A stretch of DNA of 40,283 nucleotides from a virus (taxonomy: Duplodnaviria > Heunggongvirae > Uroviricota > Caudoviricetes), in the IMG/VR virus record IMGVR_UViG_2565956723_000004; one strand, 5' to 3'. The number at the start of each line of letters is the position of its first letter. Position 1 is the stretch's first letter. The position numbers and the translations under genes are program-made. The notes beneath the pieces were generated by a model that did no database searches, had not been told where the DNA came from, and saw only the letters and a program-made list of their open reading frames with translations. This document shows, piece by piece, positions 1 through 36,228 of the stretch.

Positions 1-1215
1 TTATTTTTCAACCTCTGACAGGGGTAAGTAATGAGATGTCTGTAATGTCAAACTCTCTATCTCAAAGGAAATGTTGCTGATATTTTGACCTGCAAATTGC
101 GGATGCCACTCAGCGCCAGGGAATAACATTTCCGCAGAAGTAGCAACTATAGGGTCAATAGCATTAAGATAATGTAACTTATCAGGTGCGCTGTGTAACA
201 GTAACCACTGCAACTCCACTGAAGGATTTGTAAAATGTTCTAATAAATGAAAGTTATTATGTAGTACGCTTAGTAAAAAACTGGTTTCGTATACTTCCGT
301 TACATATTTCCACCCCTGATATTCAGGTGTATTTTCATAAACAATACCCATACCTTCACAATCACTATGTCGAACTGCTTGTGGTGATAATAGTTGCAAA
401 AGAGACAAAACATCGTCCGCATATTTTTTAACTGGATGACGATTTTGCTTACCTTTTATTTGATCAATTTCAAGTGAATCACCAACAACATTGAGAGCAA
501 TAGTAACATGAGGAATATTATTATTATCACGCAAACTGAATAACCGTAATTTATGTTGCTCAATTTGATTTGCATAATACTCACCATAACCACCGGTAAG
601 ATTTTTTCGATCATCAAACTGGCCTACGCAATGTTGCATATGCCATGATTCATAAGCCATTTCACGACGAAGGTTCGAATGACTGGCATCAAACTCAACA
701 ATTTTTCCGTCTGGCACATCAAGTATTGACTTTACAGTATTTTGTTCACTCGGCTGCCACCCTTTCTCGCGTCGTTGAAGCATCTTTTCATGCTCTTCTT
801 CACGCATTCTGAACGCAACGTAGCAGGTTATGCGCTGTAGTTTTGATTCCAGACGGGTACCACATTTCCTGGAAAGAAATTCCACCAACTCCCGTTCTTT
901 GGTTAATATTTGTTGATGATCGGTTTCGATATAATAAAGTGTCGCAGTTGATACTGAGGCAGTATTAAACTTCGATACCAGCCATTCCGGGATTACATCA
1001 TCATTTTTATTAAACAGTGAATATTCTGCAAGCGAGTTAATTTGTTGCACCATTGGAAAGTCACTAATTAGCCATCGATAAAAATGGTTGAGTAACCATT
1101 TTTGGATGGTCTCATTATCCTGGCGAAACAGACTTCTTTGCAAAATTGCTGTTTTTACTTCCGGGGCATTAATTACATCCCTTGCATTATAATTCTGGTG
1201 AATATTTCCAGTCAT
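1..1215 (-). CDS. Hypothetical protein, 404 aa, AT-rich; possibly PcfJ-like (tentative)
   Basis: Complete ORF: stop codon is the first 3 nt of the window, ATG at 1213-1215. Visibly AT-rich. Family guess rests only on recall of an HCVG-containing motif (ESWHMQHCVGQF), not on a search. Confidence 0.55.
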   Translation of the reverse strand: MTGNIHQNYNARDVINAPEVKTAILQRSLFRQDNETIQKWLLNHFYRWLISDFPMVQQINSLAEYSLFNKNDDVIPEWLVSKFNTASVSTATLYYIETDHQQILTKERELVEFLSRKCGTRLESKLQRITCYVAFRMREEEHEKMLQRREKGWQPSEQNTVKSILDVPDGKIVEFDASHSNLRREMAYESWHMQHCVGQFDDRKNLTGGYGEYYANQIEQHKLRLFSLRDNNNIPHVTIALNVVGDSLEIDQIKGKQNRHPVKKYADDVLSLLQLLSPQAVRHSDCEGMGIVYENTPEYQGWKYVTEVYETSFLLSVLHNNFHLLEHFTNPSVELQWLLLHSAPDKLHYLNAIDPIVATSAEMLFPGAEWHPQFAGQNISNISFEIESLTLQTSHYLPLSEVEK

Positions 1216-1702
1216 AACATCCGCCCGTGTTTATTATATCACTCAAAGCAATAATTGTTGACTATAGATTTTTTATCTAAATCAGCATGGTTGCAGGTAC
1301 ATACTCAAGTAAGCCACTCAAGAAAATAACGTAAACTCAATAGTGGCAGCGTCACAAACTTTGGAAATTATGTCTTATATTTGCAGTTTATTTTAGTGAA
1401 TAATTGAGATAAATGACATTATTTTACATCCTCAATAATTCAGGCTGTAAGAGGACGGCAAATACATTCATAATTATCAGGGGATGAACATTCAGGAAAG
1501 TAGTCAGTATCGTCAACTTTTTCTTTTATCACTACATGAAGATTTCGTGTAGATACTCCCATCTCTGCCACTTCTCCCCTCACATTTACACTGGAGCTAA
1601 ACCCGCCGATTGCGCTACAATGCCCGCCCTTAAAGTGGGGGCACTCCCCTAACCGCTTCATCAGGTGAAGCGGCTCTGACCTGTCATCAGAACGAGAGAA
1701 TT

Positions 1703-3064
1703 ATGTTTAAACCGGAACTCCTTTCCCCGGCGGGAACGCTGAAAAATATGCGTTACGCTTTCGCTTATGGCGCAGATGCTGTTTATGCGGGCCAGCCGCG
1801 TTACTCCCTGCGTGTACGCAACAACGAATTCAACCACGAAAATCTTCAGCTCGGCATCAATGAAGCCCACGCGCTGGGGAAAAAGTTTTATGTCGTGGTC
1901 AACATTGCACCGCACAACGCCAAGCTGAAAACCTTTATCCGTGACCTGAAACCGGTGGTGGAAATGGGGCCGGATGCGCTGATTATGTCCGATCCAGGGC
2001 TGATTATGCTGGTGCGTGAACACTTCCCGGAAATGCCAATCCACCTCTCGGTACAGGCTAACGCCGTAAACTGGGCGACGGTGAAATTCTGGCAGCAAAT
2101 GGGTCTGACCCGCGTGATCCTCTCTCGCGAACTGTCACTGGAAGAGATTGAAGAGATCCGCAATCAGGTGCCGGATATGGAGATCGAAATCTTCGTTCAC
2201 GGCGCGCTGTGCATGGCCTACTCCGGTCGCTGCCTGCTCTCTGGCTATATCAACAAGCGCGACCCGAACCAGGGCACCTGCACCAACGCCTGCCGCTGGG
2301 AGTACAATGTCCAGGAAGGGAAAGAAGATGACGTCGGCAACATCGTACACAAGTACGAGCCGATTCCGGTGCAAAATGTTGAGCCGACGCTGGGTATCGG
2401 CGCGCCAACCGACAAAGTGTTTATGATCGAAGAAGCCCAGCGTCCGGGCGAGTATATGACCGCGTTTGAAGATGAGCACGGCACTTACATCATGAACTCG
2501 AAAGATCTGCGCGCCATCGCCCATGTTGAACGCCTGACCAAAATGGGCGTGCATTCGCTGAAAATCGAAGGCCGTACCAAATCTTTCTACTATTGCGCAC
2601 GCACCGCGCAGGTTTACCGTAAAGCTATCGATGACGCCGCTGCGGGCAAACCGTTCGATACCAGCCTGCTGGAAACGCTGGAAGGTCTGGCGCATCGTGG
2701 CTATACCGAAGGTTTCCTGCGTCGTCATACCCACGACGATTATCAGAACTACGAATACGGTTATTCGGTTTCTGACCGCCAGCAGTTTGTTGGTGAGTTT
2801 ACCGGTGAGCGCAAGGGGGAGCTCGCGGCGGTAGCGGTGAAAAATAAATTCTCCGTTGGCGACAGCCTTGAGCTGATGACGCCGCAAGGCAACATTAACT
2901 TTACCCTTGAGCATATGGAAAACGCCAAAGGTGAAGCGATGCCGGTCGCACCAGGCGATGGTTATACTGTGTGGCTCCCGGTGCCGCAGGATCTTGAGCT
3001 AAATTACGCGCTGCTGATGCGTAATTTCTCCGGGGAAACCACGCGTAACCCCCACGGTAAGTGA
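1703..3064 (+). CDS. yegQ: U32-family peptidase YegQ (tRNA hydroxylation protein TrhP), 453 aa
   Basis: Full-length ORF whose translation (MFKPELLSPAGTLKNMRYAFAYGADAVYAGQPRYSLRV...) matches E. coli YegQ as I recall it; cysteine cluster CLLSGY...CTNACRWEY typical of U32 proteins. Confidence 0.93.
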   Translation: MFKPELLSPAGTLKNMRYAFAYGADAVYAGQPRYSLRVRNNEFNHENLQLGINEAHALGKKFYVVVNIAPHNAKLKTFIRDLKPVVEMGPDALIMSDPGLIMLVREHFPEMPIHLSVQANAVNWATVKFWQQMGLTRVILSRELSLEEIEEIRNQVPDMEIEIFVHGALCMAYSGRCLLSGYINKRDPNQGTCTNACRWEYNVQEGKEDDVGNIVHKYEPIPVQNVEPTLGIGAPTDKVFMIEEAQRPGEYMTAFEDEHGTYIMNSKDLRAIAHVERLTKMGVHSLKIEGRTKSFYYCARTAQVYRKAIDDAAAGKPFDTSLLETLEGLAHRGYTEGFLRRHTHDDYQNYEYGYSVSDRQQFVGEFTGERKGELAAVAVKNKFSVGDSLELMTPQGNINFTLEHMENAKGEAMPVAPGDGYTVWLPVPQDLELNYALLMRNFSGETTRNPHGK

Positions 3065-8748: not shown

Positions 8749-9939
8749 TTAATTGCTGTTAACCGAGGTGACCAGATTTGCCAGGTATTTATCGGTAATA
8801 CGCTGGCGCAGGGTCAGGTTTTCAAGAGGAGGCACCGGTGTATAGTCGTAGTCGATATACAGTTTTCCGGCCTTGAGGGTTTCCGCATCGTTGGATTCTT
8901 CGCTGAACCAGCAGGTCGCATCCACGATATAGCCGTTTGTTTTCAGCTCACGGAATTTGGCATTGATGCCGTCAACGATGTCGCGAATCAGCGTTGCGGT
9001 GATGGGCTTGTCCACCGCCCACATGTGCGCCTCAGCCATCGTGTCGGCCATCACCTGCGCGGTGCGGGTGTAGTTTTCAAAGAGGAACAGCGGGTCATCA
9101 GAGCAGGTACGGTTACCCCAGAATCGGAAACCGTCGCGGCGAATCAGCGTAGTGACGCCTGACTCGTTAAGCAGGTCAGCATCGGTGCCGGACTCCTGCA
9201 AATCCCAGAATACAGATGCGCTGATGCCGGTAACACCGTTTACCCCGACGTTGGACAGCGTTTTATGCCAGCCCTGCTCCTGGTCGATTTTAGCGCGCAG
9301 ACCCAGCGCACGGGCGGTGGCATACGCGGTGGCGGTGGTACTGGTGACCGTATCCCATGCGAGGAAATCCGGCCAGATGACCATCAGCTCACGCTGGCTG
9401 AAATTCTGGCGGTAGGCTTTCACCTCGGAAATGGTCTTACAGCCCCATGCGCTGATATATCCGAAAGCGCGCAGCTTCTGACAGACGGATGCCAGTGCAA
9501 CAGCCACCTCTTTGGTATCCAGTCCCGGCACACCGAGAATACGCGGTTTAACACCGGTTACCGACTCCGCCGCCAGCAGGGCTTTTAGTCCGGTGTACTG
9601 ACCGTTTTCGTCGGTGGTGCCGATGATATTGGAAACGGTCTGCGCGAGTTTCGTTTCCTCGTCATCACCGGTGCCGTCTTCCACGCGCACGACAACGGTG
9701 ACCGGTTTTGACTGGTCAGCGATGGCCTGCAACGATGCCGCCAGCGTGCCTTTTTTACCGGCCTTTGCAATTGCGCTTTGCACATTGGTAATCAGCACCG
9801 GTTTATTGAGGGGGAAGGTTTCCGCATCCGCATCGCTGGCCGTGCAGACCATGCCGACAATGGCAGTGGATACGGTGGAAATGACGCGGGTGCCGTCGTT
9901 AATCTCCAGCACCTGCACGCCATGATGATAGTCACTCAT
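8749..9939 (-). CDS. FI: Tail sheath protein FI, 396 aa
   Basis: Length and position as in P2 FI. Confidence 0.9.
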   Translation of the reverse strand: MSDYHHGVQVLEINDGTRVISTVSTAIVGMVCTASDADAETFPLNKPVLITNVQSAIAKAGKKGTLAASLQAIADQSKPVTVVVRVEDGTGDDEETKLAQTVSNIIGTTDENGQYTGLKALLAAESVTGVKPRILGVPGLDTKEVAVALASVCQKLRAFGYISAWGCKTISEVKAYRQNFSQRELMVIWPDFLAWDTVTSTTATAYATARALGLRAKIDQEQGWHKTLSNVGVNGVTGISASVFWDLQESGTDADLLNESGVTTLIRRDGFRFWGNRTCSDDPLFLFENYTRTAQVMADTMAEAHMWAVDKPITATLIRDIVDGINAKFRELKTNGYIVDATCWFSEESNDAETLKAGKLYIDYDYTPVPPLENLTLRQRITDKYLANLVTSVNSN

Positions 9940-10422: not shown

Positions 10423-11172
10423 TCACTGATCTCCTTCGGTCAACGGTGATTGTATTTTCCGCATTGATTCTCCTTTAAGTTCGATCTTGATACTGCCATG
10501 AACCAGTCGATCTAGGATGGCATCCGCATGTGTGGAGTCTCCGATCATTTTGTACCAGTTTTCCACCGGCAACTGGCTCACTACGATGATTGAGCCTCGT
10601 TGGTACATCAGATCCACTATTTCCAGCAGGTCGCTACGCTGTTCTGATGAGAGAGGTTCCAGCCCCCAGTCATCCAGAAGCAGCAGATCGCTATTATTCA
10701 GCCTGGTCAAAAGTTTGCTGTATCTTCCATCAGCATGCCCCTGATAGCACTGTTCCATCAGCGCTTTAAGGCGATAATAGTAGACCTTGTATCCCTGTCG
10801 GCAGGCATTATGACCAAGTGCACATGCCAGGAACGTTTTACCGCTGCCGGTGGCCCCGGTCAGTAAAATATTTTGTTTCAGGGTTAACCAGTTTCCCTGA
10901 CTGAGTGAACGGATGAGGGCCCTGTCCAGCCCTCTATTGTTACGATAATCCAGCTTTGATAACTCAGCATTAAGTCTGAACCGTGCATGTTTGATCAGAC
11001 GCTCTGCCTTCCTGTTTTCACGGCAGGTTAGTTCTTCTGCTGTCAGTAATGACAGGCGTTCTTCGAAGCCCAGCTCCTGGTATGTGCCCGGCTGAGCAAG
11101 TTGCTTTTTAAGCGCATCACGGAAGCCGGTGAGTTTAAGTGCGGTCAGTTGTTCGTAAAGATGATTCATCAT
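10423..11172 (-). CDS. istB: IS21-family helper ATPase IstB, 249 aa
   Basis: Walker A GATGSGKT and Walker B LLLLDDWG; overall IstB-like. Confidence 0.9.
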   Translation of the reverse strand: MMNHLYEQLTALKLTGFRDALKKQLAQPGTYQELGFEERLSLLTAEELTCRENRKAERLIKHARFRLNAELSKLDYRNNRGLDRALIRSLSQGNWLTLKQNILLTGATGSGKTFLACALGHNACRQGYKVYYYRLKALMEQCYQGHADGRYSKLLTRLNNSDLLLLDDWGLEPLSSEQRSDLLEIVDLMYQRGSIIVVSQLPVENWYKMIGDSTHADAILDRLVHGSIKIELKGESMRKIQSPLTEGDQ

Positions 11173-11183
11173 TGGATCCCGTA

Positions 11184-12725
11184 TCAGTGGTAATACTCAC
11201 TGCCGCGTACGTTTTCGTGTTCCATCGTGGATAACAGATCTGGTTTTGGATCCTGAACAGGTTGTTTATCCAGACCTTTTTCCAGGATCGATTTAATACC
11301 TGACAGACGCCATACCTTTGTTTTCAGAGCTCTTGCACATGCTGCATTAAGTCTGGCTTTACTGTATTTTTTATGAAGGTTCAGGAGTCCAAGGCAGAAG
11401 CGATAGCTTTGTTCCGGATGTGGACGAGAGTTCAGTATATGAAGCACATAACTATGAGTTTCACTGCCTATGTGCCCCGCCCATTCCAGAAGACGCTCTG
11501 GCGTCCAGGTGGCATGCTGTCGATGAGCTTCAGGCATGTGCTCGTTGCGGGTACTGTAGCCATAAGTACGCTTGCGCGGGTGCACAGCAACCTCCTGCCC
11601 CTGATTGAAGAGTCTTACCAGTTCTCCGGAGATCCATGCTTCCAGTTGCTGGCCTAACAGCGAACATGGAACCGAGTAGTAATGTTTGTCGATTTCCACG
11701 TGGTAATCGGCATGAACTCTGACTTTCTTCACCAGGGTGTAACTGTAACTGGCTTCAGGAAGAGGCTTCAGTGCGGGTTTATCAAGCTGGATGAAGAGTT
11801 CTGCACGTGAATAACCCAACTTCTGCATTATTTTGTTATTCAGTCTTTCCAGCAACTCCCGAATGCGCTGATTAAGCGATGCAAGGCTGTAGAAGATCTC
11901 ATGCCTGATTCGGGCCATGATCCAGCGTTCAACAACCTGAACGCCAACTTCAGCTTTGGCTTTATCTTTCGGTTTACGTGGCCGCGCAGGCAAAACTGCG
12001 ACATTATAATGCTCAAGCATCTGCTGGTAGGTAGGGTTAACGTCAGGATCATACTTACATGCCCTGGATGTGGCGCTTTTCAGATTGTCCGGAACAACAA
12101 GTTCAGGAACGCCACCCAACCACTGGAAGCAGCGAACATGACTCATCACCCAGTCTTCAAGCTGCTGAGACCAGGTGGCCTCTGCCCATGTGTAACTTGA
12201 TGCCCCGAGAACAGCTACGATGACCTGAGCAGTTCTTATTTCTCCGGTCTCAGGGTCGGTAACGCCAACGGTAGGTCCACAGTAATCAACGAAAAGTTTT
12301 TCGCCAGCTTTATGTACCTGACGCATTGATGGTGAAGTGGTTTTGAGCCATTCACGGTACATCCGGCAGTAATGGTTATAGCTGTAAAAACCGCCTGGAT
12401 TACGCTCACAGTATTCTTCCCAGAGTAGCTGCAGCGTCACGCATTTATTACGCAGTTCCCGGTGTACTGTAGCCCAGTCAGGCAGAGAGTGCTTCTTCAT
12501 CTTAACCTGGGTCTGAAGGAACGCATGTTTTAGTTTTGTATCATCCCATCCTGTAGGTAAGGGCCACTGCTTTATGCCAAGTTGAGCCGCCCGATTAGCA
12601 TATCTGGATACAACGGAAGGGGAGATTGCAAGACTACGACCAATTTGTCGATGGCTGAGTCCAACACCGTATTTAAGCCTAAGAATTTCTTTAAGTTTTC
12701 TCATAGAAATTGGAACTGTTGGCAT
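11184..12725 (-). CDS. istA: IS21-family transposase IstA, 513 aa
   Basis: N-terminal HTH (LSHRQIGRSLAISPSVVSRY) and IstA-like core, immediately upstream of istB on the same strand. Confidence 0.88.
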   Translation of the reverse strand: MPTVPISMRKLKEILRLKYGVGLSHRQIGRSLAISPSVVSRYANRAAQLGIKQWPLPTGWDDTKLKHAFLQTQVKMKKHSLPDWATVHRELRNKCVTLQLLWEEYCERNPGGFYSYNHYCRMYREWLKTTSPSMRQVHKAGEKLFVDYCGPTVGVTDPETGEIRTAQVIVAVLGASSYTWAEATWSQQLEDWVMSHVRCFQWLGGVPELVVPDNLKSATSRACKYDPDVNPTYQQMLEHYNVAVLPARPRKPKDKAKAEVGVQVVERWIMARIRHEIFYSLASLNQRIRELLERLNNKIMQKLGYSRAELFIQLDKPALKPLPEASYSYTLVKKVRVHADYHVEIDKHYYSVPCSLLGQQLEAWISGELVRLFNQGQEVAVHPRKRTYGYSTRNEHMPEAHRQHATWTPERLLEWAGHIGSETHSYVLHILNSRPHPEQSYRFCLGLLNLHKKYSKARLNAACARALKTKVWRLSGIKSILEKGLDKQPVQDPKPDLLSTMEHENVRGSEYYH

Positions 12726-13258: not shown

Positions 13259-13843
13259 TTAAAAGAGACCTTCTATATCGACTTCAATGCCCAAATAACG
13301 GACTGTGCTTTCCAGTTTCTTATGGCCCAACAGAAGTTGGATCCCCCGGAGACTCTTGGTTTTCTTGTAGATTAAGTAAGGTTTTGTTCTTCTCATGGAA
13401 TGTGTGCTGTACAGCGAATCTTCGAGACCAAGCTTTTCTACCCACCCATGAAAAATTCGGTTGTATTGCCGGGTTGATATATGGTGGTTAGTTCCGACCC
13501 GAGAGCGGAACAGGAAGCCTTTACTATGCCAGTTGCCGAGCTTTATCAATGCAGTAACCGCTTCCCTTGTCCCTTTGGTTATCTCAAATTGGACAGGGCT
13601 GCCGGTTTTCTGTTGCAACACCGTTGCTCTGCTTGAGACAGAACTGCCATATGCAGCATCTGATACTTTGAGTTTGACCAAATCACAGCCCCGTAGCTTA
13701 GTGTCCAAAGCCATGTTGAACAGAGCTAGATCGCGTGTTTTACCTTCCAACTCAAGTCTAATCCGGATCCCCCAGATATGAGATATCTGAAGTGGCCTTT
13801 TTTGACCGATGGTACGGTCTTTATTCCACGGTGACGTTTTCAT
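13259..13843 (-). CDS. Small tyrosine recombinase, FimB/FimE-like size, about 194 aa
   Basis: Catalytic signature: Arg in TKLRGCDL, HSMRRT (H-x-x-R), LLGHKKLESTVRY (His and Tyr nucleophile). Start taken at MKTSPWNK with AGGAGA Shine-Dalgarno 8 nt upstream; the ORF track extends to 13945. Confidence 0.75.
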   Translation of the reverse strand: MKTSPWNKDRTIGQKRPLQISHIWGIRIRLELEGKTRDLALFNMALDTKLRGCDLVKLKVSDAAYGSSVSSRATVLQQKTGSPVQFEITKGTREAVTALIKLGNWHSKGFLFRSRVGTNHHISTRQYNRIFHGWVEKLGLEDSLYSTHSMRRTKPYLIYKKTKSLRGIQLLLGHKKLESTVRYLGIEVDIEGLF

Positions 13844-13949
13844 ATTCAAATCTCCTGCAATGTGGGAGATTTGAGTATGGTTGTCTCTCAAGAGCGAAAA
13901 TAAGTCAACTATCACTAGTTGTTGCGCATGTACGTATTCTGTCAATTAA

Positions 13950-14792
13950 TTATTGACAATCATCAATTCTGGAATGATCAAAATCATCATATCGAATTAT
14001 AGTCTGGTTGACTGTATCTATTGTTGGTGTCATTTCTGTTATAATATCCTGATAACCTAAAGAGTTAAATACATTTACTAAGGCCTCACACCGAAGGGCC
14101 GTAGCAATTACAAAATTATAAATTGCCAGCCGTTTATTTTCTTGTTTAACTGCAAGAATGAATTCGATAGCAGTATTTTCATCACTTTGGATTGCATTAT
14201 ATAGAGATACTATATTTACCATATCATCAGAGAATGTATGTATTGAATCACAAAGAGGAACGTAATGGGCATGATAGTGTGTTTCCCAGCCAATTAATTC
14301 AAAAAGTTTTCTGGTTCCTGGATATTCAGGTGTATTTGGCCACAATCTATTAAATAGATCAGTTAGTTCTTTTCCCATGCGAATCCTTTCATTTGCTGCT
14401 GGATTAGTCATTCCTTTGGATTTTAAACACTCCAGCCACCGTTTTCCATTACTATGAACTAATTTCTTACTAGCCTTGAGTAATGCTTGTGCATTTTCGC
14501 CATCATCTATTGCTATATAAAATTGATTGGCAGCCTGTTCTATTATAACCCTAGCTAATACTTCCGATGCTGAAAAGGCTCCTATATTCAAAGAAGAGAT
14601 AGCCTGATTACTAAGTTCATTCAGTACATTAAAGTACTGTAAGACCATCAATTTTTGTTCCACACCCTTTAGGTTGTCTATTTTATTTTTATGCTCCTCA
14701 AATTTTGCATGGATATATTTATTTATCGCGGCTATTTTTTTTACATCTTCGTCAAGATCAAACGGGCAACGTCCAAACAATTCTTTTTTCAT
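13950..14792 (-). CDS. Hypothetical protein, 280 aa, AT-rich cargo gene
   Basis: Complete ORF with CAGGAG Shine-Dalgarno 7 nt upstream of ATG; no motif I can assign. Confidence 0.7.
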   Translation of the reverse strand: MKKELFGRCPFDLDEDVKKIAAINKYIHAKFEEHKNKIDNLKGVEQKLMVLQYFNVLNELSNQAISSLNIGAFSASEVLARVIIEQAANQFYIAIDDGENAQALLKASKKLVHSNGKRWLECLKSKGMTNPAANERIRMGKELTDLFNRLWPNTPEYPGTRKLFELIGWETHYHAHYVPLCDSIHTFSDDMVNIVSLYNAIQSDENTAIEFILAVKQENKRLAIYNFVIATALRCEALVNVFNSLGYQDIITEMTPTIDTVNQTIIRYDDFDHSRIDDCQ

Positions 14793-15213: not shown

Positions 15214-15741
15214 TTATTGCGGCATTTCCGGCCATTCAGGATTTGCAGGATCCACACGGCTGACCAGAACACTGTAGCGTTCCCATGCTTCCAGTCGGCT
15301 ACGCTCATCATCTGTTGCCATATTCAGTCTGACAGAGCGTTCCAGTGGCTGAATGATAGTTTCAGCTTCGGAAAGCAAAGCTGACTTCTGTAATTCCGCC
15401 AGTTGCAGCTGTTCGTCTGCCGTATAAATCCGCTTAATCACGGCACCATCCTTAAACATCCATTTACCTGAGTCATCAGCACGTCGGTTGGCGGTAATAT
15501 CAGGAACCTCGACAACGCTAAAACCTTCAGGGTTGAGCGTTGAAGCATCTCTGGTGATGCCGACAATTATATTATTCTCATCGTAAACAATCTTTATCGT
15601 GTCTTCCTGAAAATTACTTACTTCCTCATACCAGTTTTTTCCCTCTTCGGACCATAACCAGATAACATCAAAATTTTTTGTCAGTTGATATTGGGCAACA
15701 GTTTTTGGATTACCCGCAGTAATATTTTTTAAATGCTGCAT
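15214..15741 (-). CDS. G: Tail fiber assembly protein G, 175 aa
   Basis: Length and position as in P2 G, downstream of H. Confidence 0.85.
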
Positions 15742-28412: not shown

Positions 28413-28585
28413 TGTCAGGAGTCCTGAATAGTGATTAGAGGAGTCACATGTCGGCATCAGTTTCCCGACGATGCGCATCCTCCGCCATCAGTCCCGGATG
28501 GCTTATCACTGACACAACAGCACCTTAGCGAATCGCGGGGCGCGACTCAGTAGCCTTGCCGTGTATTCATCACGGCGAGGTATTC

Positions 28586-30358
28586 ATGACCATCACCACA
28601 GACACCACTCTTTTACACGACCCGCGTCGTCAGGCGGCGCTGCTGTACTGGCAGGGATTTTCCGTGCCGCAGATTGCCGCCATGTTGCAGATGAAACGCC
28701 CGACGGTGCAGAGCTGGAAACAGCGCGACGGCTGGGACAGCGTTGCTCCCATCAGCCGTGTCGAAATGAGTCTGGAAGCGCGGCTGACCCAGCTCATCAT
28801 CAAACCGCAGAAAACCGGTGGTGACTTCAAGGAAATTGACCTGCTGGGACGCCAGATTGAACGACTGGCACGGGTAAACCGCTACAGTCAGACCGGCAAC
28901 GAGGCAGACCTTAATCCGAACGTCGCTAACCGCAACAAAGGCGGGCGTCGCAAACCGAAAAAGAATTTTTTCAGTGACGAGGCCATCGAAAAGCTGGAGC
29001 AGATTTTCTTTGAGCAGTCTTTCGAATATCAGTTGCACTGGTATCGCGCCGGGCTTGAGCACCGCATCCGCGATATCCTGAAATCCCGCCAGATTGGCGC
29101 GACGTTTTATTTTTCCCGCGAGGCGCTGCTGCGCGCCCTGAAAACCGGTCATAACCAGATTTTTCTGTCGGCCAGTAAAACGCAGGCGTATGTGTTCCGC
29201 GAATACATCATCGCCTTTGCCCGGCTGGTTGACGTTGACCTGACCGGTGACCCGATTGTCCTGGGCAATAACGGCGCAAAACTGATTTTTCTCGGCACCA
29301 ACTCCAACACCGCACAGAGCCATAACGGCGACCTGTACGTCGACGAGATTTTCTGGATCCCGAATTTTCAGGTACTGCGTAAGGTGGCATCAGGTATGGC
29401 CTCACAGAGTCACCTGCGCTCGACCTATTTCTCCACCCCGTCCACGCTGGCGCACGACGCCTACCCGTTCTGGTCGGGTGAACTGTTCAACCGGGGACGC
29501 GCCAGCGCCGCCGAACGCGTGGAAATCGACGTCAGTCATAACGCCCTTGCCGGAGGTCTTCTCTGTGCGGACGGCCAGTGGCGGCAGATTGTCACCATTG
29601 AGGACGCCCTGAAAGGCGGCTGCACGCTGTTCGACATTGAGCAGCTCAAACGTGAAAACAGCGCCGACGATTTTAAAAACCTGTTCATGTGTGAATTTGT
29701 TGACGACAAGGCGTCGGTGTTCCCGTTCGAGGAGCTGCAACGCTGCATGGTCGACACGCTGGAAGAATGGGAAGACTATGCGCCGTTTGCCGCGAATCCG
29801 TTCGGCTCCCGCCCGGTATGGATTGGTTACGACCCGTCACACCGTGGCGACAGCGCCGGATGCGTGGTACTGGCACCGCCGGTGGTGGCCGGTGGCAAAT
29901 TCAGAATACTTGAGCGTCACCAGTGGAAAGGCATGGACTTTGCCACTCAGGCGGAATCCATCCGCAAACTCACCGAAAAATACAACGTCGAATACATCGG
30001 TATTGATGCCACCGGCCTCGGTGTCGGCGTGTTCCAGCTCGTGCGCTCGTTCTATCCCGCCGCGCGCGACATCCGCTACACGCCGGAAATGAAAACCGCA
30101 ATGGTGCTCAAGGCCAAAGACGTTATCCGCCGTGGCTGTCTGGAATATGACGTCAGCGCCACCGACATCACCAGCTCGTTTATGGCTATCCGCAAGACCA
30201 TGACCAGCAGCGGACGCAGCGCCACCTATGAGGCCAGCCGCAGCGAGGAAGCCAGCCACGCCGACCTCGCCTGGGCGACCATGCACGCCCTGTTAAATGA
30301 GCCACTCACCGCAGGTATCAGCACCCCGCTGACATCCACCATTCTGGAGTTTTACTGA
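28586..30358 (+). CDS. P: Terminase large (ATPase) subunit P, 590 aa
   Basis: MTITTDTTLLHDPRRQAALLYWQGF...; divergent from O as in P2. Confidence 0.9.
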   Translation: MTITTDTTLLHDPRRQAALLYWQGFSVPQIAAMLQMKRPTVQSWKQRDGWDSVAPISRVEMSLEARLTQLIIKPQKTGGDFKEIDLLGRQIERLARVNRYSQTGNEADLNPNVANRNKGGRRKPKKNFFSDEAIEKLEQIFFEQSFEYQLHWYRAGLEHRIRDILKSRQIGATFYFSREALLRALKTGHNQIFLSASKTQAYVFREYIIAFARLVDVDLTGDPIVLGNNGAKLIFLGTNSNTAQSHNGDLYVDEIFWIPNFQVLRKVASGMASQSHLRSTYFSTPSTLAHDAYPFWSGELFNRGRASAAERVEIDVSHNALAGGLLCADGQWRQIVTIEDALKGGCTLFDIEQLKRENSADDFKNLFMCEFVDDKASVFPFEELQRCMVDTLEEWEDYAPFAANPFGSRPVWIGYDPSHRGDSAGCVVLAPPVVAGGKFRILERHQWKGMDFATQAESIRKLTEKYNVEYIGIDATGLGVGVFQLVRSFYPAARDIRYTPEMKTAMVLKAKDVIRRGCLEYDVSATDITSSFMAIRKTMTSSGRSATYEASRSEEASHADLAWATMHALLNEPLTAGISTPLTSTILEFY

Positions 30359-31392
30359 TGAGCAAGAAAAAAGGGAAAACACCGCAACCTGCGGCAAAAA
30401 CAATGACTGCCAGCGCCCCGAAAATGGAGGCATTCACCTTTGGTGAGCCGGTACCGGTACTCGACCGCCGTGACATTCTGGATTATGTCGAATGCATCAG
30501 TAACGGCAGATGGTATGAGCCGCCGGTCAGCTTTACCGGTCTGGCAAAAAGCCTGCGTGCTGCCGTGCATCACAGCTCACCGATTTACGTCAAACGTAAT
30601 ATTCTGGCTTCAACGTTTATCCCGCACCCGTGGCTTTCCCAGCAGGATTTCAGCCGCTTTGTGCTGGATTTTCTGGTGTTCGGTAATGCGTTTCTGGAAA
30701 AGCGTTACAGCACCACCGGTAAGGTCATCAGACTGGAAACCTCACCGGCAAAATATACCCGCCGTGGTGTGGAAGAGGATGTTTACTGGTGGGTGCCGTC
30801 CTTCAACGAGCCGACAGCCTTCGCACCCGGCTCCGTGTTTCACCTGCTGGAGCCGGATATTAATCAGGAGTTGTACGGCCTGCCAGAATATCTCAGCGCC
30901 CTTAACTCTGCCTGGCTGAATGAGTCGGCCACGCTGTTCCGCCGCAAGTATTACGAAAATGGCGCACATGCCGGATACATCATGTACGTCACCGATGCCG
31001 TGCAGGATCGCAACGATATCGAAATGCTTCGCGAAAACATGGTTAAGTCGAAAGGCCGCAATAACTTTAAAAATCTGTTTCTCTATGCCCCGCAGGGGAA
31101 AGCCGACGGCATTAAAATTATCCCGCTCAGTGAAGTGGCGACGAAGGACGATTTTTTTAATATCAAAAAAGCCAGCGCCGCTGACCTGCTGGACGCACAC
31201 CGCATCCCCTTTCAGTTGATGGGCGGCAAGCCGGAGAACGTCGGGTCGCTGGGTGATATTGAGAAAGTGGCAAAGGTCTTTGTCCGCAATGAGCTTATCC
31301 CGCTACAGGACAGGATCCGCGAGATAAACGGCTGGCTCGGTCAGGAGGTCATCCGCTTTAAAAACTACTCACTGGACACTGACAACGACTGA
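30358..31392 (+). CDS. Q: Portal protein Q, 344 aa
   Basis: Length and position as in P2 Q, downstream of P. Confidence 0.9.
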   Translation: MSKKKGKTPQPAAKTMTASAPKMEAFTFGEPVPVLDRRDILDYVECISNGRWYEPPVSFTGLAKSLRAAVHHSSPIYVKRNILASTFIPHPWLSQQDFSRFVLDFLVFGNAFLEKRYSTTGKVIRLETSPAKYTRRGVEEDVYWWVPSFNEPTAFAPGSVFHLLEPDINQELYGLPEYLSALNSAWLNESATLFRRKYYENGAHAGYIMYVTDAVQDRNDIEMLRENMVKSKGRNNFKNLFLYAPQGKADGIKIIPLSEVATKDDFFNIKKASAADLLDAHRIPFQLMGGKPENVGSLGDIEKVAKVFVRNELIPLQDRIREINGWLGQEVIRFKNYSLDTDND

Positions 31393-31397
31393 ACATC

Positions 31398-31419
31398 GCC
31401 GCCTGCGGGCGGCTTTTTT
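31398..31419 (+). terminator. Rho-independent terminator after Q
   Basis: Stem GCCGCC/GGCGGC with loop TGCG followed by TTTTTT, 6 nt after the Q stop. Confidence 0.7.
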
Positions 31420-31561
31420 ACATCCCGTCATCACGCCCTCACACGCTCACCACCGCACAAAACACCCCTTAGACACACCAACGCCCCGACGCACAATCTA
31501 AACGCCATCACGACGCGCTCAGACGCTGAAAAAATAAAATCAGCACCACCGCCAGCGCGCA

Positions 31562-31580
31562 GTGCTTTCCCCGCCTCGCC
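31562..31580. other. cos cohesive-end site
   Basis: GTGCTTTCCCCGCCTCGCC is the reverse complement of GGCGAGGCGGGGAAAGCAC, which I recall as the P2 19-nt cohesive end; it lies between Q and the right-end cargo, as in P2. Confidence 0.6.
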
Positions 31581-31731
31581 CGCCCGCTTCATGGGTCGGT
31601 TTGAATGCAGTTGAATTACAACTACCAAACCAAGCAATCCCTACTATTACGCAGAAAATGCATACTGAAATACCTCGTGCAAATTGATGCAGCTAAGTAT
31701 GCATAGGTTTTATGCCTCAACGTATACGTTA

Positions 31732-33564
31732 TCAAACAGAGCCCTGTTCAAATACAGTATCAAAATATGGTAGGAGAGGATAAGCACACAGAAAGAAAAT
31801 CAGGATGCATGCATATGTCGTTGTTTCATCGTAACAAGCATTAGTATATAAATTACCATGTGCTAATTTATGTCTTAAGGTTGCCCCACTCTTTCTATTA
31901 AAAAGAACATCGATAGTTAAAACAAGATTCTTAGAAAAGATACTTTCCAAATCATCTCTGCATTTATCTAGAAGCTGAGAAATACTTGTTGACTCCTCTA
32001 ATCCCTTATCCAAATATCTAGTAGCATCCTTTCCACTAAGCTCATAATAATAACGAACCATACCTTCCATTTGTGGTATTAAAAGATAAGCTGCACTGAT
32101 GTAATCTCCCTGCCATAATTTGTAAAAGCCCAAATTAAAAATCTCCCTAAACTCCGGCTTGACAATTGGACTAGTTGTAACTAATTTAACGAATGTTGAC
32201 AACGTCAAGCCATGTTCTTGAGAAAGTACATAGCGAGCAGGTTCAAAGACACCGTTTACAAAAATCTTATGAGTAATCTCGAAATTTCTTAGATATTGAT
32301 CAATAACAACATCATCACTCATATCTTTTTTATTATTCAACGGCGGGATTGTATATACCTTACGCCCACTCTCATCATTAATTTCTGTTCCAACAAAACT
32401 AGAGAATAAACTTTTTTCTGATAATCTTAAAACTTGCTCCCTCATGCTTTCAATATTTTCAATCGGTGTTTCACGCATTAAAACTTTGAATATATCGGGC
32501 AAAGAACGCCCCGTCAGTTTTTTTTCACTTTCAGCAACCAAGTCACTAATATCAATAGAATGGCTTAAAGTGACATATTCACTCCTTACTTCTTCTCTCA
32601 AATTAGCAAGTTGTTCCTTTAAATCTTCTATCTGTTGGCTATCACCACCATACTGTCTTAATTCAGAGATAGCTGTTCTTAACCAAGAGATCTTACCCAT
32701 ATTATCAGGTCGATCTGTTGCAACTTTAATAGTAATATTTGCAGATGCCAGTTTACATCTCTTGGCACGTTCATACTCACCATTTTTTTCATAAATAACT
32801 GCACTTGTCATATAAAGTGATTTTACAGCATCATAATATTTTTTATCTTTATGCTGCTCAGCCATCTTCTCAGCATTTTCCGCATACTGCAGATTATACC
32901 CATCAAAATCACGCACCATAAACCAAGTCAAATTATTGAAACCTTCAAAGATTAATCTTTCATTTTGAATACTATAAAGAGAATGAATGGCATTTTTAAT
33001 CGCCATGTTTCCTTCTGATTTTCTAGGGTAGACCATTTTATTAATGTGCAAAGCCCTAGCAATATAATCACGAGCAAAAATAAAGCAATTTAAATCACTT
33101 TCATCCATGCTTTCGTTTTTTATTATTAGTTTTTCAATTGCTATATTTAGCATTTCAGCATAGGAATCAATTGCTTTAATTGCCACGTCTTTGTTTTTCC
33201 GGTTATTACACCAAACAACATCATATATTCTTGATAACAAAAATGGATTGGTTATTTTTTGAGAAACATATAAAAGACAGTCATTCACCTGCTCATCAAA
33301 ATCTTCAGGCAATATTGATCTTTTATTACCCCAAATCATTTGGGGTTCAAATGATGGAGTGTTGTTAACAACTTGCAAATTGAAACTATATAGCATACCA
33401 AAAAGAGATGCTAATTTTTTCTCTTTGGGGTTTCCTGATGATTCAGCAATCCCATCCAGATATTTTTTTATTTTATGTGCATGAAATGTAACTGGTATAT
33501 GCATAAAAACACTATAATCTAGTGTTTCAAGCTCTTCCCTTGTAAGAACAAAGATATCATTCAT
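31732..33564 (-). CDS. Hypothetical protein, 611 aa, AT-rich cargo gene at the tin/old position; candidate anti-phage effector
   Basis: Long ORF; start chosen at MNDIFVLTR with AAGGTG Shine-Dalgarno 7 nt upstream (the ORF track extends 34 codons further to 33666). C-terminal ...SGATLRHKLAHGNLY... fits R-x4-H. No Walker A, HExxH or YxDD motif seen. Confidence 0.75.
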   Translation of the reverse strand: MNDIFVLTREELETLDYSVFMHIPVTFHAHKIKKYLDGIAESSGNPKEKKLASLFGMLYSFNLQVVNNTPSFEPQMIWGNKRSILPEDFDEQVNDCLLYVSQKITNPFLLSRIYDVVWCNNRKNKDVAIKAIDSYAEMLNIAIEKLIIKNESMDESDLNCFIFARDYIARALHINKMVYPRKSEGNMAIKNAIHSLYSIQNERLIFEGFNNLTWFMVRDFDGYNLQYAENAEKMAEQHKDKKYYDAVKSLYMTSAVIYEKNGEYERAKRCKLASANITIKVATDRPDNMGKISWLRTAISELRQYGGDSQQIEDLKEQLANLREEVRSEYVTLSHSIDISDLVAESEKKLTGRSLPDIFKVLMRETPIENIESMREQVLRLSEKSLFSSFVGTEINDESGRKVYTIPPLNNKKDMSDDVVIDQYLRNFEITHKIFVNGVFEPARYVLSQEHGLTLSTFVKLVTTSPIVKPEFREIFNLGFYKLWQGDYISAAYLLIPQMEGMVRYYYELSGKDATRYLDKGLEESTSISQLLDKCRDDLESIFSKNLVLTIDVLFNRKSGATLRHKLAHGNLYTNACYDETTTYACILIFFLCAYPLLPYFDTVFEQGSV

Positions 33565-33680
33565 CGTTTTCACCTTTTTCAGTATAAATTTGCACACATT
33601 ATTAGCAACATAATTATCAATAGTTAACACATGTAGATAAACAGCAATTTTACTATTATGCAACAAATTAAATCAGATGT

Positions 33681-35966
33681 TTATTGCTCTGAATAACAAT
33701 AAAACCAACTCCACTCATCAGCGACCGGATACGTAAATTTTTTCCCGTTGTAATCTACGGTCGCACCACGCGCCAGCGCCTCAAGCTCCCATCGCTGCGG
33801 CCTGATACCGTTCTGAGCAAGGTCAACGCGGATACGGGTAATTTGCATTCTTTCCGACCGGGTCAGTCTGGCCGATGGCGCTATTTCATGCGGTTTTAAC
33901 GGGCTTCCGTTTCTTTGCTGACGGTTTGGTGTTATCAGGTCGTGTTTTAATGCGCCCCTGAGCGCCCTCACGACCTCCGGGTCATTCCATTCGATAACAC
34001 CGTCATCAACCAGATTAAGCACTGCTGCGGCGTGTTCAGAAGGTGTGGGAGCCGGTAACGAAGTATCACCACTGGTGAGCTTTCCACAGTTATTGACAGG
34101 ACTCCGAGGCGCGGCGATGCCGCTTTTTAAAGTCAAAGGCTCCACGACCGGAACTTTCGGAACAATGCGCCAGTCCGTCGTTCTGGTGATATGAATATGA
34201 CGCGCGCCGAGATGCGGCGCGTAAATGCCGACCACTCTCTCGACTTCTTCCTCGTACTCGTTAACTTCATCCGACGGGCTACGGGCGACTCTGACAGTCT
34301 GGCAATCGCGCGGAACATTTGCCCCACCCTGCGCACTGATATACAACGCAAAATCGCCACTGTCTGCGGCAGCGCGTGCAGCCTCGACGCGTTCGTCAAA
34401 CTCATCAGCAATGCTGACGCCGCGAGGCAATTTGCGTAGTTCACGGTAAGCCCCCATTGTCGGCAGACCAACCGTTTTAAATTGCGGGATGCGCCACGTT
34501 GACGCCCATGCAGTAACAGCCGCGGCAGTATCTTTCAGAGGTCTGCCGGTATCGTTATCGAGCTGACCATCCAGTGCATAGCCGTCGATATTTTTTGAAA
34601 TGTATTTCGCGATATATCCCGCAGCACCGCCCCGGTTAAGGTGCTTTGCCTGAAAACGGTTTCGCGCGGCTCCTCTTTCGTCACCATCCTCTTTGAGCGC
34701 ATAGCGACGCATGATTTCGATAATCTGATTACGCTGGCGTGGATTACAAAAAAGCATCATATGCCAGTGCGGCGTTCCGTCGTGGTGTGGCTCGACGACA
34801 CGCAAACCGTAGACCTGTAAATCATTATCCTTGAATGCCGTGCGCATCAGGCTCCAGATGCGGCAGAGATAACGCTGCGCATCCTTTGGATTAAATGCCT
34901 CATCGTTCCAGCCGTGATTTAGCTGGACGGTTTTACTTTCGCCTTTTCCGACCTGACGTGTCGGGTGATACTTTGACGGCGCGGTCAGCGTGATAAACAT
35001 CCCCACATCACCCTCTGCGGCGGCGTAACGCTCAATACCGGCAATGGTGTTCATCAGCTCCATCCGGCGAATTTCAGGATTAGAAATACTTCCCATCACC
35101 TTACTGATAAGGTCGATGCGCTCGCCGGTTTCCCTGTTTTCAAGGTCACACGATTTAAGAAATTCCAGATTTGCCTGGCGGCGCGCACGCACATCACGAA
35201 TGGCATGTTTACTGGCATAAGGAGAACGGTCTTTATTGACCTCCCCGACAGCAATCAGTAACGCTTCATGCCAGCGCATACGCTGACCTTTAAGCTGATG
35301 AGTCCACCACTCATCGTTAAACAGGCGGGCAATGGCAGAATATGCCTGCCTCGTGGTCATCTGTCCTTTACGGTATTTTTTCCAGTAAAGCGGGGAAATA
35401 TTGAAAGCACGTGCAGCGCCAGCAACATGACCATACAGGTGAGCCTGAGCCTCATCCGTAAACAGTGATTCTTTTTCGCCATGCGCATCCCCCCAGGCAT
35501 CGCTGATTTCCTCATACATCATGAAAAGCTGCGATGAGATACGGGCGGCAAACTTTTTCAGCTCCTTATCATTCATCCCCGGCAGACGCGCATAATGGTC
35601 ACGCTCTGCCAGAAACAGCAACGACGCGTCGGTGTTCATTTCATGGCGCTGATTCACACGCTCAATGCGCGGCCATAAACGACGCTGAAAAGTGGATGTG
35701 AGGAAATAAAACCCGTGCACCGGGCTTTTATTGCGCCGGATGTAGTCATAGCGTGAAGTAAACAGCGAGCGCAAAAAGTAAGGCAGGCGATTAATCGTGG
35801 ATAAAACACCTTGCACCTGACGCATCTCGTCACGTGTAAGGGGTCTTTCGCGCCCGACGGCCTCGCGTGGCGCATTCCATGCATAAGCACCGGTAAACGT
35901 CTCACCGGTGCCTGCGGCAAATGCTGACGGAGGGACAAAACGCCCGGAGGCTTTAACGGCCATATG
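33681..35966 (-). CDS. A: Replication initiation protein A (rolling-circle nickase), 761 aa
   Basis: MAVKASGRFVPPSAFAAGTGETF...; start at the internal Met to match P2 A. Confidence 0.9.
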   Translation of the reverse strand, partial: HMAVKASGRFVPPSAFAAGTGETFTGAYAWNAPREAVGRERPLTRDEMRQVQGVLSTINRLPYFLRSLFTSRYDYIRRNKSPVHGFYFLTSTFQRRLWPRIERVNQRHEMNTDASLLFLAERDHYARLPGMNDKELKKFAARISSQLFMMYEEISDAWGDAHGEKESLFTDEAQAHLYGHVAGAARAFNISPLYWKKYRKGQMTTRQAYSAIARLFNDEWWTHQLKGQRMRWHEALLIAVGEVNKDRSPYASKHAIRDVRARRQANLEFLKSCDLENRETGERIDLISKVMGSISNPEIRRMELMNTIAGIERYAAAEGDVGMFITLTAPSKYHPTRQVGKGESKTVQLNHGWNDEAFNPKDAQRYLCRIWSLMRTAFKDNDLQVYGLRVVEPHHDGTPHWHMMLFCNPRQRNQIIEIMRRYALKEDGDERGAARNRFQAKHLNRGGAAGYIAKYISKNIDGYALDGQLDNDTGRPLKDTAAAVTAWASTWRIPQFKTVGLPTMGAYRELRKLPRGVSIADEFDERVEAARAAADSGDFALYISAQGGANVPRDCQTVRVARSPSDEVNEYEEEVERVVGIYAPHLGARHIHITRTTDWRIVPKVPVVEPLTLKSGIAAPRSPVNNCGKLTSGDTSLPAPTPSEHAAAVLNLVDDGVIEWNDPEVVRALRGALKHDLITPNRQQRNGSPLKPHEIAPSARLTRSERMQITRIRVDLAQNGIRPQRWELEALARGATVDYNGKKFTYPVADEWSWFYCYSEQ

Positions 35967-36228
35967 AGCCAAAAGCCTCTGAACAACGCCTGCTGAGTTG
36001 CTCAACCTGCGCGTTTAAATCAGCGAAAGACTTTGCGCTTCCGGTCAGAATATCGTGATGCATCAGGCCGGAAACGAGCTGGCTTAATTTCGGGTAATAA
36101 CCAACCACTGCCAGCCATTCCTGACCGGCGTTTTTACCGCTTTCCGCTCTCTTTTTCTCGTGGAGAATAAACTGAAAGCTGTCACTGGTAACGACATAAC
36201 GTTCGCCAATTTCAATACGAATACTCAT
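35953..36228 (-). CDS. P2 orf83-like hypothetical protein, 91 aa
   Basis: Small ORF immediately upstream of A in the early operon. Confidence 0.7.
   Translation of the reverse strand: MSIRIEIGERYVVTSDSFQFILHEKKRAESGKNAGQEWLAVVGYYPKLSQLVSGLMHHDILTGSAKSFADLNAQVEQLSRRCSEAFGSYGR

Follow-up and report, generated by a model that had tools for sequence, protein, structure and literature searches.

A DUF7380-DUF4209 protein with a predicted HEPN ribonuclease core in the cos-gene A cargo slot of a P2-like prophage

What kind of protein is encoded by the gene that lies between cos and the replication gene A of this P2-like prophage, and does it belong to the anti-phage repertoire known from this position? 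We addressed this question in a window of 40,283 nucleotides (IMG/VR virus record IMGVR_UViG_2565956723_000004; Caudoviricetes), by which we mean the whole stretch of DNA that was analyzed. The initial annotation of this DNA had placed the gene in the tin/old accessory slot of P2 and put it forward as a candidate for an undescribed defense protein. We find that its most likely product is a protein of the HEPN type that cuts RNA and serves in immunity or as a toxin. The features on which the argument turns are collected in Table 1.

Table 1. Features of the cos-gene A interval and its cargo gene (positions in the window)
Feature	Position	Strand	Basis or remark
Terminase P	28556-30358	+	ORF list
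Portal Q	30358-31392	+	ORF list
Q terminator	31398-31413		
P2 cos 19-nt cohesive-end sequence, left landmark	31562..31580	-	Sequence match
Variable cargo segment, approximate	31624..33703	.	Loss of homology to other P2-like phages; GC profile
Cargo CDS, DUF7380 + TPR-like + DUF4209/HEPN protein	31732..33564	-	ORF call, Pfam, PADLOC, RefSeq
C-terminal HEPN core, ~residues 486-606, DUF4209/ERMARD type, including hydrophobic last helix 580-606	31747..32109	-	
R564-H-K-L-A-H569, predicted catalytic R-x4-H motif	31858..31875	-	R and H 100% conserved
E500-G-M-V-R504, upstream E-x3-[KR] HEPN motif	32053..32067	-	E 100%, R 99% conserved
Middle helical-repeat (TPR-like) region, ~residues 185-390	32395..33012	-	Most variable part of the family
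N-terminal DUF7380 domain, residues 4-184	33013..33555	-	Pfam E 1.2e-39; 71/71 relatives match
AT-rich upstream spacer	33565..33680	-	Sigma-70-like hexamers and RBS AAGGTGA inside
Replication gene A, right landmark	33681..36005	-	Phage_GPA, E 6e-124

The interval is bounded on the left by the P2 cos 19-mer, and on the right by gene A, whose stop lies at 33681 and whose RefSeq start is 42 nucleotides downstream of that of the longest ORF. Homology to other P2-like phages is lost at ~31613-31623 and returns at ~33704-33711, and the gene is the sole ORF in the 2.1-kb cargo between these landmarks. The same slot codes for a DUF4238 protein in pro483, for Fic/VbhT in vB_YpM_22 and STYP1, and for a DUF3850 protein plus a hypothetical protein in vB_YpM_50. 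This comparison across P2-like phages confirms that the segment is genuine variable cargo, as the initial annotation had held. Of 5426 complete E. coli genomes, 2156 have matches to the flanks, and the segment is present in full in 55; in these 55 and in one isolated phage the ORF is intact and 99-100% identical, and the segment from 31400 to 33760 is 100% identical in E. coli S88, MS7163, N53 and N62. The A-portal slot of other P2/186-like prophages contains homologs with 55% and 27% identity. A further homolog with 33% identity, P2-EC46 ORF612, was deposited as a stand-alone 2.2-kb P2-EC46 fragment, and is reported to lie in the same locus in a 2006 survey of the variable loci of P2-like coliphages.

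The rest of the window offers several further observations. The second P2 variable locus (Z/fun slot) contains an IS21-family element (10423-12725, minus strand) between an FI-like ORF (8749-9939) and a G-like ORF (15214-15741); it codes for an IstA of 513 residues (rve + Mu-transpos_C_2) and an IstB of 249 residues (IstB_IS21, E 2e-67), and in E. coli S88 it is instead the capsid gene that is interrupted by an element of this IS type. The same slot also has, at 13259-14792 on the minus strand, genes for a 280-residue DUF5677 protein and, following it, a 228-residue protein of the Phage_integrase family (tyrosine recombinase-like), neither of which matched a PADLOC model, and which may constitute an uncharacterized cargo pair. 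The integrase ORF of the prophage (38522-39217, plus strand) codes for only 231 residues, with Int_N and the beginning of the catalytic domain, which agrees with the annotation of a frameshifted integrase in S88; hence the prophage is probably unable to excise. At the left end of the window (1-3064), outside the prophage tail genes, are a PcfJ-like ORF (1-1215, minus strand) and a Peptidase_U32 gene (1703-3064, plus strand).

The cargo gene starts with an ATG, and its 611 codons, inclusive of the stop, specify a protein of 610 residues; the coordinates and strand given in the initial annotation stand, while its length of 611 residues had counted the stop codon. This start is supported by M1, which aligns in 95% of 133 distant homologs, and by the identical CDS that RefSeq annotates in E. 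coli S88 (WP_000997854.1). The strong ribosome-binding site described earlier is indeed present as AAGGTGA (33576-33570), 5 nucleotides before the ATG, and sigma-70-like hexamers are found further upstream at 33627-33598 and 33608-33581 as consensus matches only. Equally borne out is the AT-richness of the gene relative to the P2 backbone, with a GC content of 0.332 (GC3 0.252) against 0.529 in gene A and 0.527 in Q. When 1.84 billion representative proteins were searched with a profile, 3357 relatives were recovered (E<=1e-3), which for the most part are 600-640 residues long and share the full-length architecture; this shows that the coding status of the ORF is not a chance effect. Scanning the flanks for an RNA antitoxin or structured RNA gave no Rfam match and no meaningful repeats, the 3' flank folds no better than its shuffled versions (z = -0.84), and within the cargo segment no antitoxin gene, structured RNA or repeat array was found.

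Profile searches placed the protein in families to which it had been thought unassignable. It contains an N-terminal DUF7380 domain (PF24098; 136.4 bits against a gathering threshold of 27 bits), and a full-length match to the PADLOC HMM PDC-S39 (E 8.3e-85 and 1.3e-83; residues 7-598) as a stand-alone single gene; it also belongs to phrog_5183, whose function is listed as unknown in PHROGs, and gave no match in a scan against NCBIfam. At its C-terminus the DUF4209 model (PF13910) aligns with residues 524-590 at 19.5 bits (E 1.1e-3), under the gathering threshold of 22.3 bits. When 71 diverse relatives were scanned, all matched DUF7380 and 45 matched DUF4209 at E<=1e-3 (best 1e-12), and a 99%-identical phage copy carries the DUF4209 annotation. 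From these sequence comparisons the protein belongs to DUF4209 by transitivity, not by its own score. Named family members come from Enterobacter, Kosakonia, Klebsiella, Herbaspirillum, Methylobacterium, Qipengyuania and a Caudoviricetes MAG, and repeating the homolog search from a diverse alignment brought back the 21 close relatives already found.

The N-terminus of the protein is not a degenerate HEPN domain that might have arisen by internal duplication (hhalign probability 1%). DUF7380 displays conserved polar positions (R82, D88, R112, D115, W118, Y135 and R170), and we propose a role for it in sensing or regulation. Between the TPR-like region and the C-terminal core lies a beta-hairpin (residues 393-406, ~32347-32388), of low confidence in the full-length model, in which D397 and G400 are 98-99% conserved; it may be a regulatory or ligand loop, and one might speculate that the DUF7380 polar residues and D397/G400 form a site for a ligand or partner. 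A distant member, P0149 (708 residues; L011 44-2170), shows an extra N-terminal DUF2442 domain (a weak match) fused to DUF7380, which is a possible clue to the interactor of the sensor end.

To characterize the C-terminal region we aligned the query to 133 relatives (20-38% identity) and examined conservation. Full invariance across these homologs is limited to E500, R564 and H569, followed by R504 and P497 (99% each), with H565 present in 78%; a second alignment (A2) gave the same conservation of the HEPN residues. Active HEPN RNases bear an R-x4-6-H motif that closes helix 3 and has its arginine followed by a polar residue, an upstream E-x3-[KR] motif in helix 2 and an insert between helices 2 and 3 (Anantharaman et al. 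2013, PMC3710099). The segment R564-H565-K-L-A-H569 conforms to the first of these motifs, and E500 and R504, which lie in the helix spanning residues 488-509, conform to the second. The protein has two more R-x4-6-H strings, which begin with residues 426 and 444, and neither belongs to the set of positions that reach 85% conservation in the homologs. The HEPN signature which the initial annotation had noticed at the C-terminus is thus upheld by the invariance of R564 and H569 and by the DUF4209 matches of the relatives. The DUF4209 (C6orf70/ERMARD) family has itself been classed as a catalytically active HEPN group, with bacterial versions noted as fused to TPRs and as occurring in operons related to restriction-modification (Anantharaman et al. 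2013).

HEPN domains fold as an up-down bundle of four helices (Anantharaman et al. 2013), and a separate AlphaFold2 model of residues 410-610 (pLDDT 94.1, pTM 0.90) shows an order of helices that fits the HEPN topology. The Foldseek comparison that had been suggested for this region returned no match to the C-terminal model in the PDB, and sequence searches of the PDB with the A1 and A2 profiles gave only noise (E>0.3), indicating that the family has no relative with a solved structure. In our view, motifs and family links lend good support to the HEPN assignment, and the fold lends it moderate support. From its N- to its C-terminus, the protein comprises DUF7380, a TPR-like helical array and the predicted four-helix HEPN domain. 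It is 35% identical to its homologs in the HEPN core and ~20% identical in its N-terminal and middle parts, a contrast that fits a conserved effector to which a diversifying sensor is joined.

We then compared the protein with known systems. It is a member of the PDC-S39/DUF7380 + DUF4209 group by its full-length HMM match and by the identity of its DNA with a cloned segment of S88 (see below), and has no structural difference from that family, though the DUF4209 match of this allele falls just below the Pfam cut-off and the function of the family is not validated. With eukaryotic ERMARD/C6orf70 it shares the DUF4209 domain and the R-x4-H and E-x3-R motifs, a likeness by domain and motif; the eukaryotic proteins are ER-membrane proteins with a TM segment, whereas the cargo protein appears soluble and carries DUF7380. 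DARNA (PD-T7-3) is likewise a single protein that combines a HEPN domain (R-x4-H) with a large all-helical non-catalytic domain; it mediates abortive infection through tRNA anticodon cleavage switched on by an infection cue, namely ssDNA presented by the phage SSB. However, in DARNA the order is reversed, with the HEPN domain at the N-terminus of a protein of 456 residues. ApeA (HEPN_Apea; Gao 2020), another single-gene HEPN defense protein of P2/P4 hotspots, is a tRNA anticodon nuclease that forms doughnut-shaped oligomers, senses 5'-phosphorylated deoxydinucleotides and is activated by a ligand in a pocket distant from the active site, but it is a separate family in both Pfam and PADLOC. Neither HEPN_Apea nor PD-T7-3 was matched in the Pfam and PADLOC scans at E<=1. 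P2 Old shares with the cargo protein its place in the genome and a presumed role in abortive infection; it is, however, an ABC ATPase with a TOPRIM nuclease. A motif search of the cargo protein found no Walker A, HExxH or YxDD, and the Pfam scan no ATPase or TOPRIM domain, in agreement with the initial annotation; Old-like, metalloprotease and reverse-transcriptase identities are rejected on the absence of these motifs.

The family, and this very DNA, have been encountered before. In the study of P2 hotspots by Rousset et al. 2022, 'DUF4209' is system #13 (193 of 18,150 loci) and a divergent DUF4209 variant is system #55 (76 loci). Table S2B of the same study ('additional tested systems') includes pFR103, a 'Putative HEPN' from locus P2 of E. 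coli S88, and the primers of this construct map to window positions 33745-33764 and 31373-31392, so that its insert corresponds to 31373-33764. [quoted passage not shown] 2022). That study places its validated systems in Table S2A and counts three of eight extra P2 systems as active; as far as its supplementary lists go, pFR103 stands among the additional tested systems and is absent from the validated ones. The plaque assays that had been proposed have to this extent been carried out on the same DNA, with no phenotype reported in those lists. PDC-S39, for its part, was derived from genes located within BREX, DISARM or type I RM systems and is one of 145 untested candidates (Payne et al.). Given that the family is catalogued and the exact segment has been screened, the earlier description of the protein as undescribed and unassignable fails; the gene is already known, as an open candidate and not a discovery.

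Further indications of a defense role come from predictions and gene contexts. DefensePredictor scores E. coli DUF4209 proteins as probable defense genes (log-odds 4.3-8.1), and they are absent from its tables of tested and validated systems. Among the homologs, one adjoins a DUF4238 gene and one adjoins genes for RES, a resolvase, a large methylase and a RecD2-like helicase. The P2 slot holds validated systems in sister phages, such as the DUF4238 system of pro483. A search of the literature on DUF4209, DUF7380, PDC-S39, PF13910 and ERMARD+HEPN found no experimental validation, and no published phenotype was found for any member of the family.

Taken together, we lean modestly toward a reading, drawn by analogy with ApeA and DARNA/PD-T7-3 of other families, in which the protein is an auto-inhibited single-protein HEPN RNase whose DUF7380/TPR part senses an infection cue, with RNA cleavage leading to abortive infection. 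The cargo would in that case be a DUF4209 (ERMARD/C6orf70)-type HEPN endoribonuclease, a single polypeptide carried as an accessory gene in the P2 gene A-cos hotspot. The architecture, the conservation of the motifs and the hotspot context are established by our analysis, and we infer the RNase activity, its gating and the role in defense. The protein would be kept inactive in uninfected cells, a state to which the lack of a partner gene and the cloning under its own promoter with no reported toxicity both point. An infection-associated cue would then be read by the DUF7380/TPR part, perhaps with oligomerization pairing two HEPN domains, and the activated RNase would cleave RNA of the host or of the phage, either in tRNA anticodon loops or in mRNA, in a metal-ion-free reaction, so that translation would be arrested and the infection aborted.

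We regard as fairly unlikely the alternative that the protein is an active HEPN RNase with a role other than defense, such as an addiction or stress toxin, a factor interfering with P4-type satellites or plasmids, or an enzyme of host or phage RNA processing. The record of the eight-phage screen, which in the lists cited reports no protection, would be in keeping with this, as would the non-defense cargo, e.g. partition systems or toxins, that occupies about a quarter of P2 hotspots (Rousset et al. 2022) and the proposal that the eukaryotic DUF4209 branch (ERMARD/C6orf70) functions in ER-associated RNA degradation and not in immunity. Yet the family recurs in defense hotspots and also next to or inside known defense systems, and its sequence outside the catalytic core turns over rapidly, as in immune sensors; an addiction module is additionally disfavored by the missing antitoxin partner.

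That the gene is silent or inert cargo in E. coli, hitch-hiking with the prophage as silenced AT-rich foreign DNA or for want of a host factor, appears to us improbable. The difference between 33% GC in the gene and 53% in its flanks suggests a recent foreign origin and would make xenogeneic silencing likely; the host prophage is decaying, as seen in its truncated integrase and the IS21 insertion, and the plaque screen on record is, within the same supplementary lists, negative. Against this, the near-identical copies in the 55 genomes and the isolated phage are all intact, and the invariance of the catalytic residues across the 133 distant homologs, drawn from 3357 family representatives, is a sign that activity is under purifying selection.

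A membrane-anchored HEPN protein like eukaryotic ERMARD, with the hydrophobic stretch noted after the R-x4-H motif serving as a TM helix at the inner membrane, is highly improbable and was rejected: such a stretch does exist in this allele (Kyte-Doolittle 19-residue mean 1.78 at residues 587-605) and eukaryotic C6orf70 does possess a transmembrane segment, but the homologs are less hydrophobic here (mean hydropathy 1.07), with at least one charged residue in 89% and an arginine at position 591 in 51%, and in the high-confidence model this segment forms the final helix of the HEPN bundle.

Returning to the auto-inhibited RNase, a bolder form of this reading, possible in our estimation and rather doubtful, is that the DUF7380-DUF4209 proteins are an as yet unvalidated class of single-protein abortive-infection RNases which respond to a novel signal absent from the 2022 panel and which represent the bacterial immune ancestor of ERMARD; if true, this would provide a further link between prokaryotic defense and eukaryotic RNA surveillance. 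The cargo gene should not be reported as a new defense family, and running another small plaque panel would probably add little, as this has already been done. If its trigger were found, the protein would add one more single-protein HEPN immune sensor, with the uncharacterized DUF7380 as the sensing domain and ERMARD as a eukaryotic relative, and such a sensor would help in understanding the gating of HEPN RNases.
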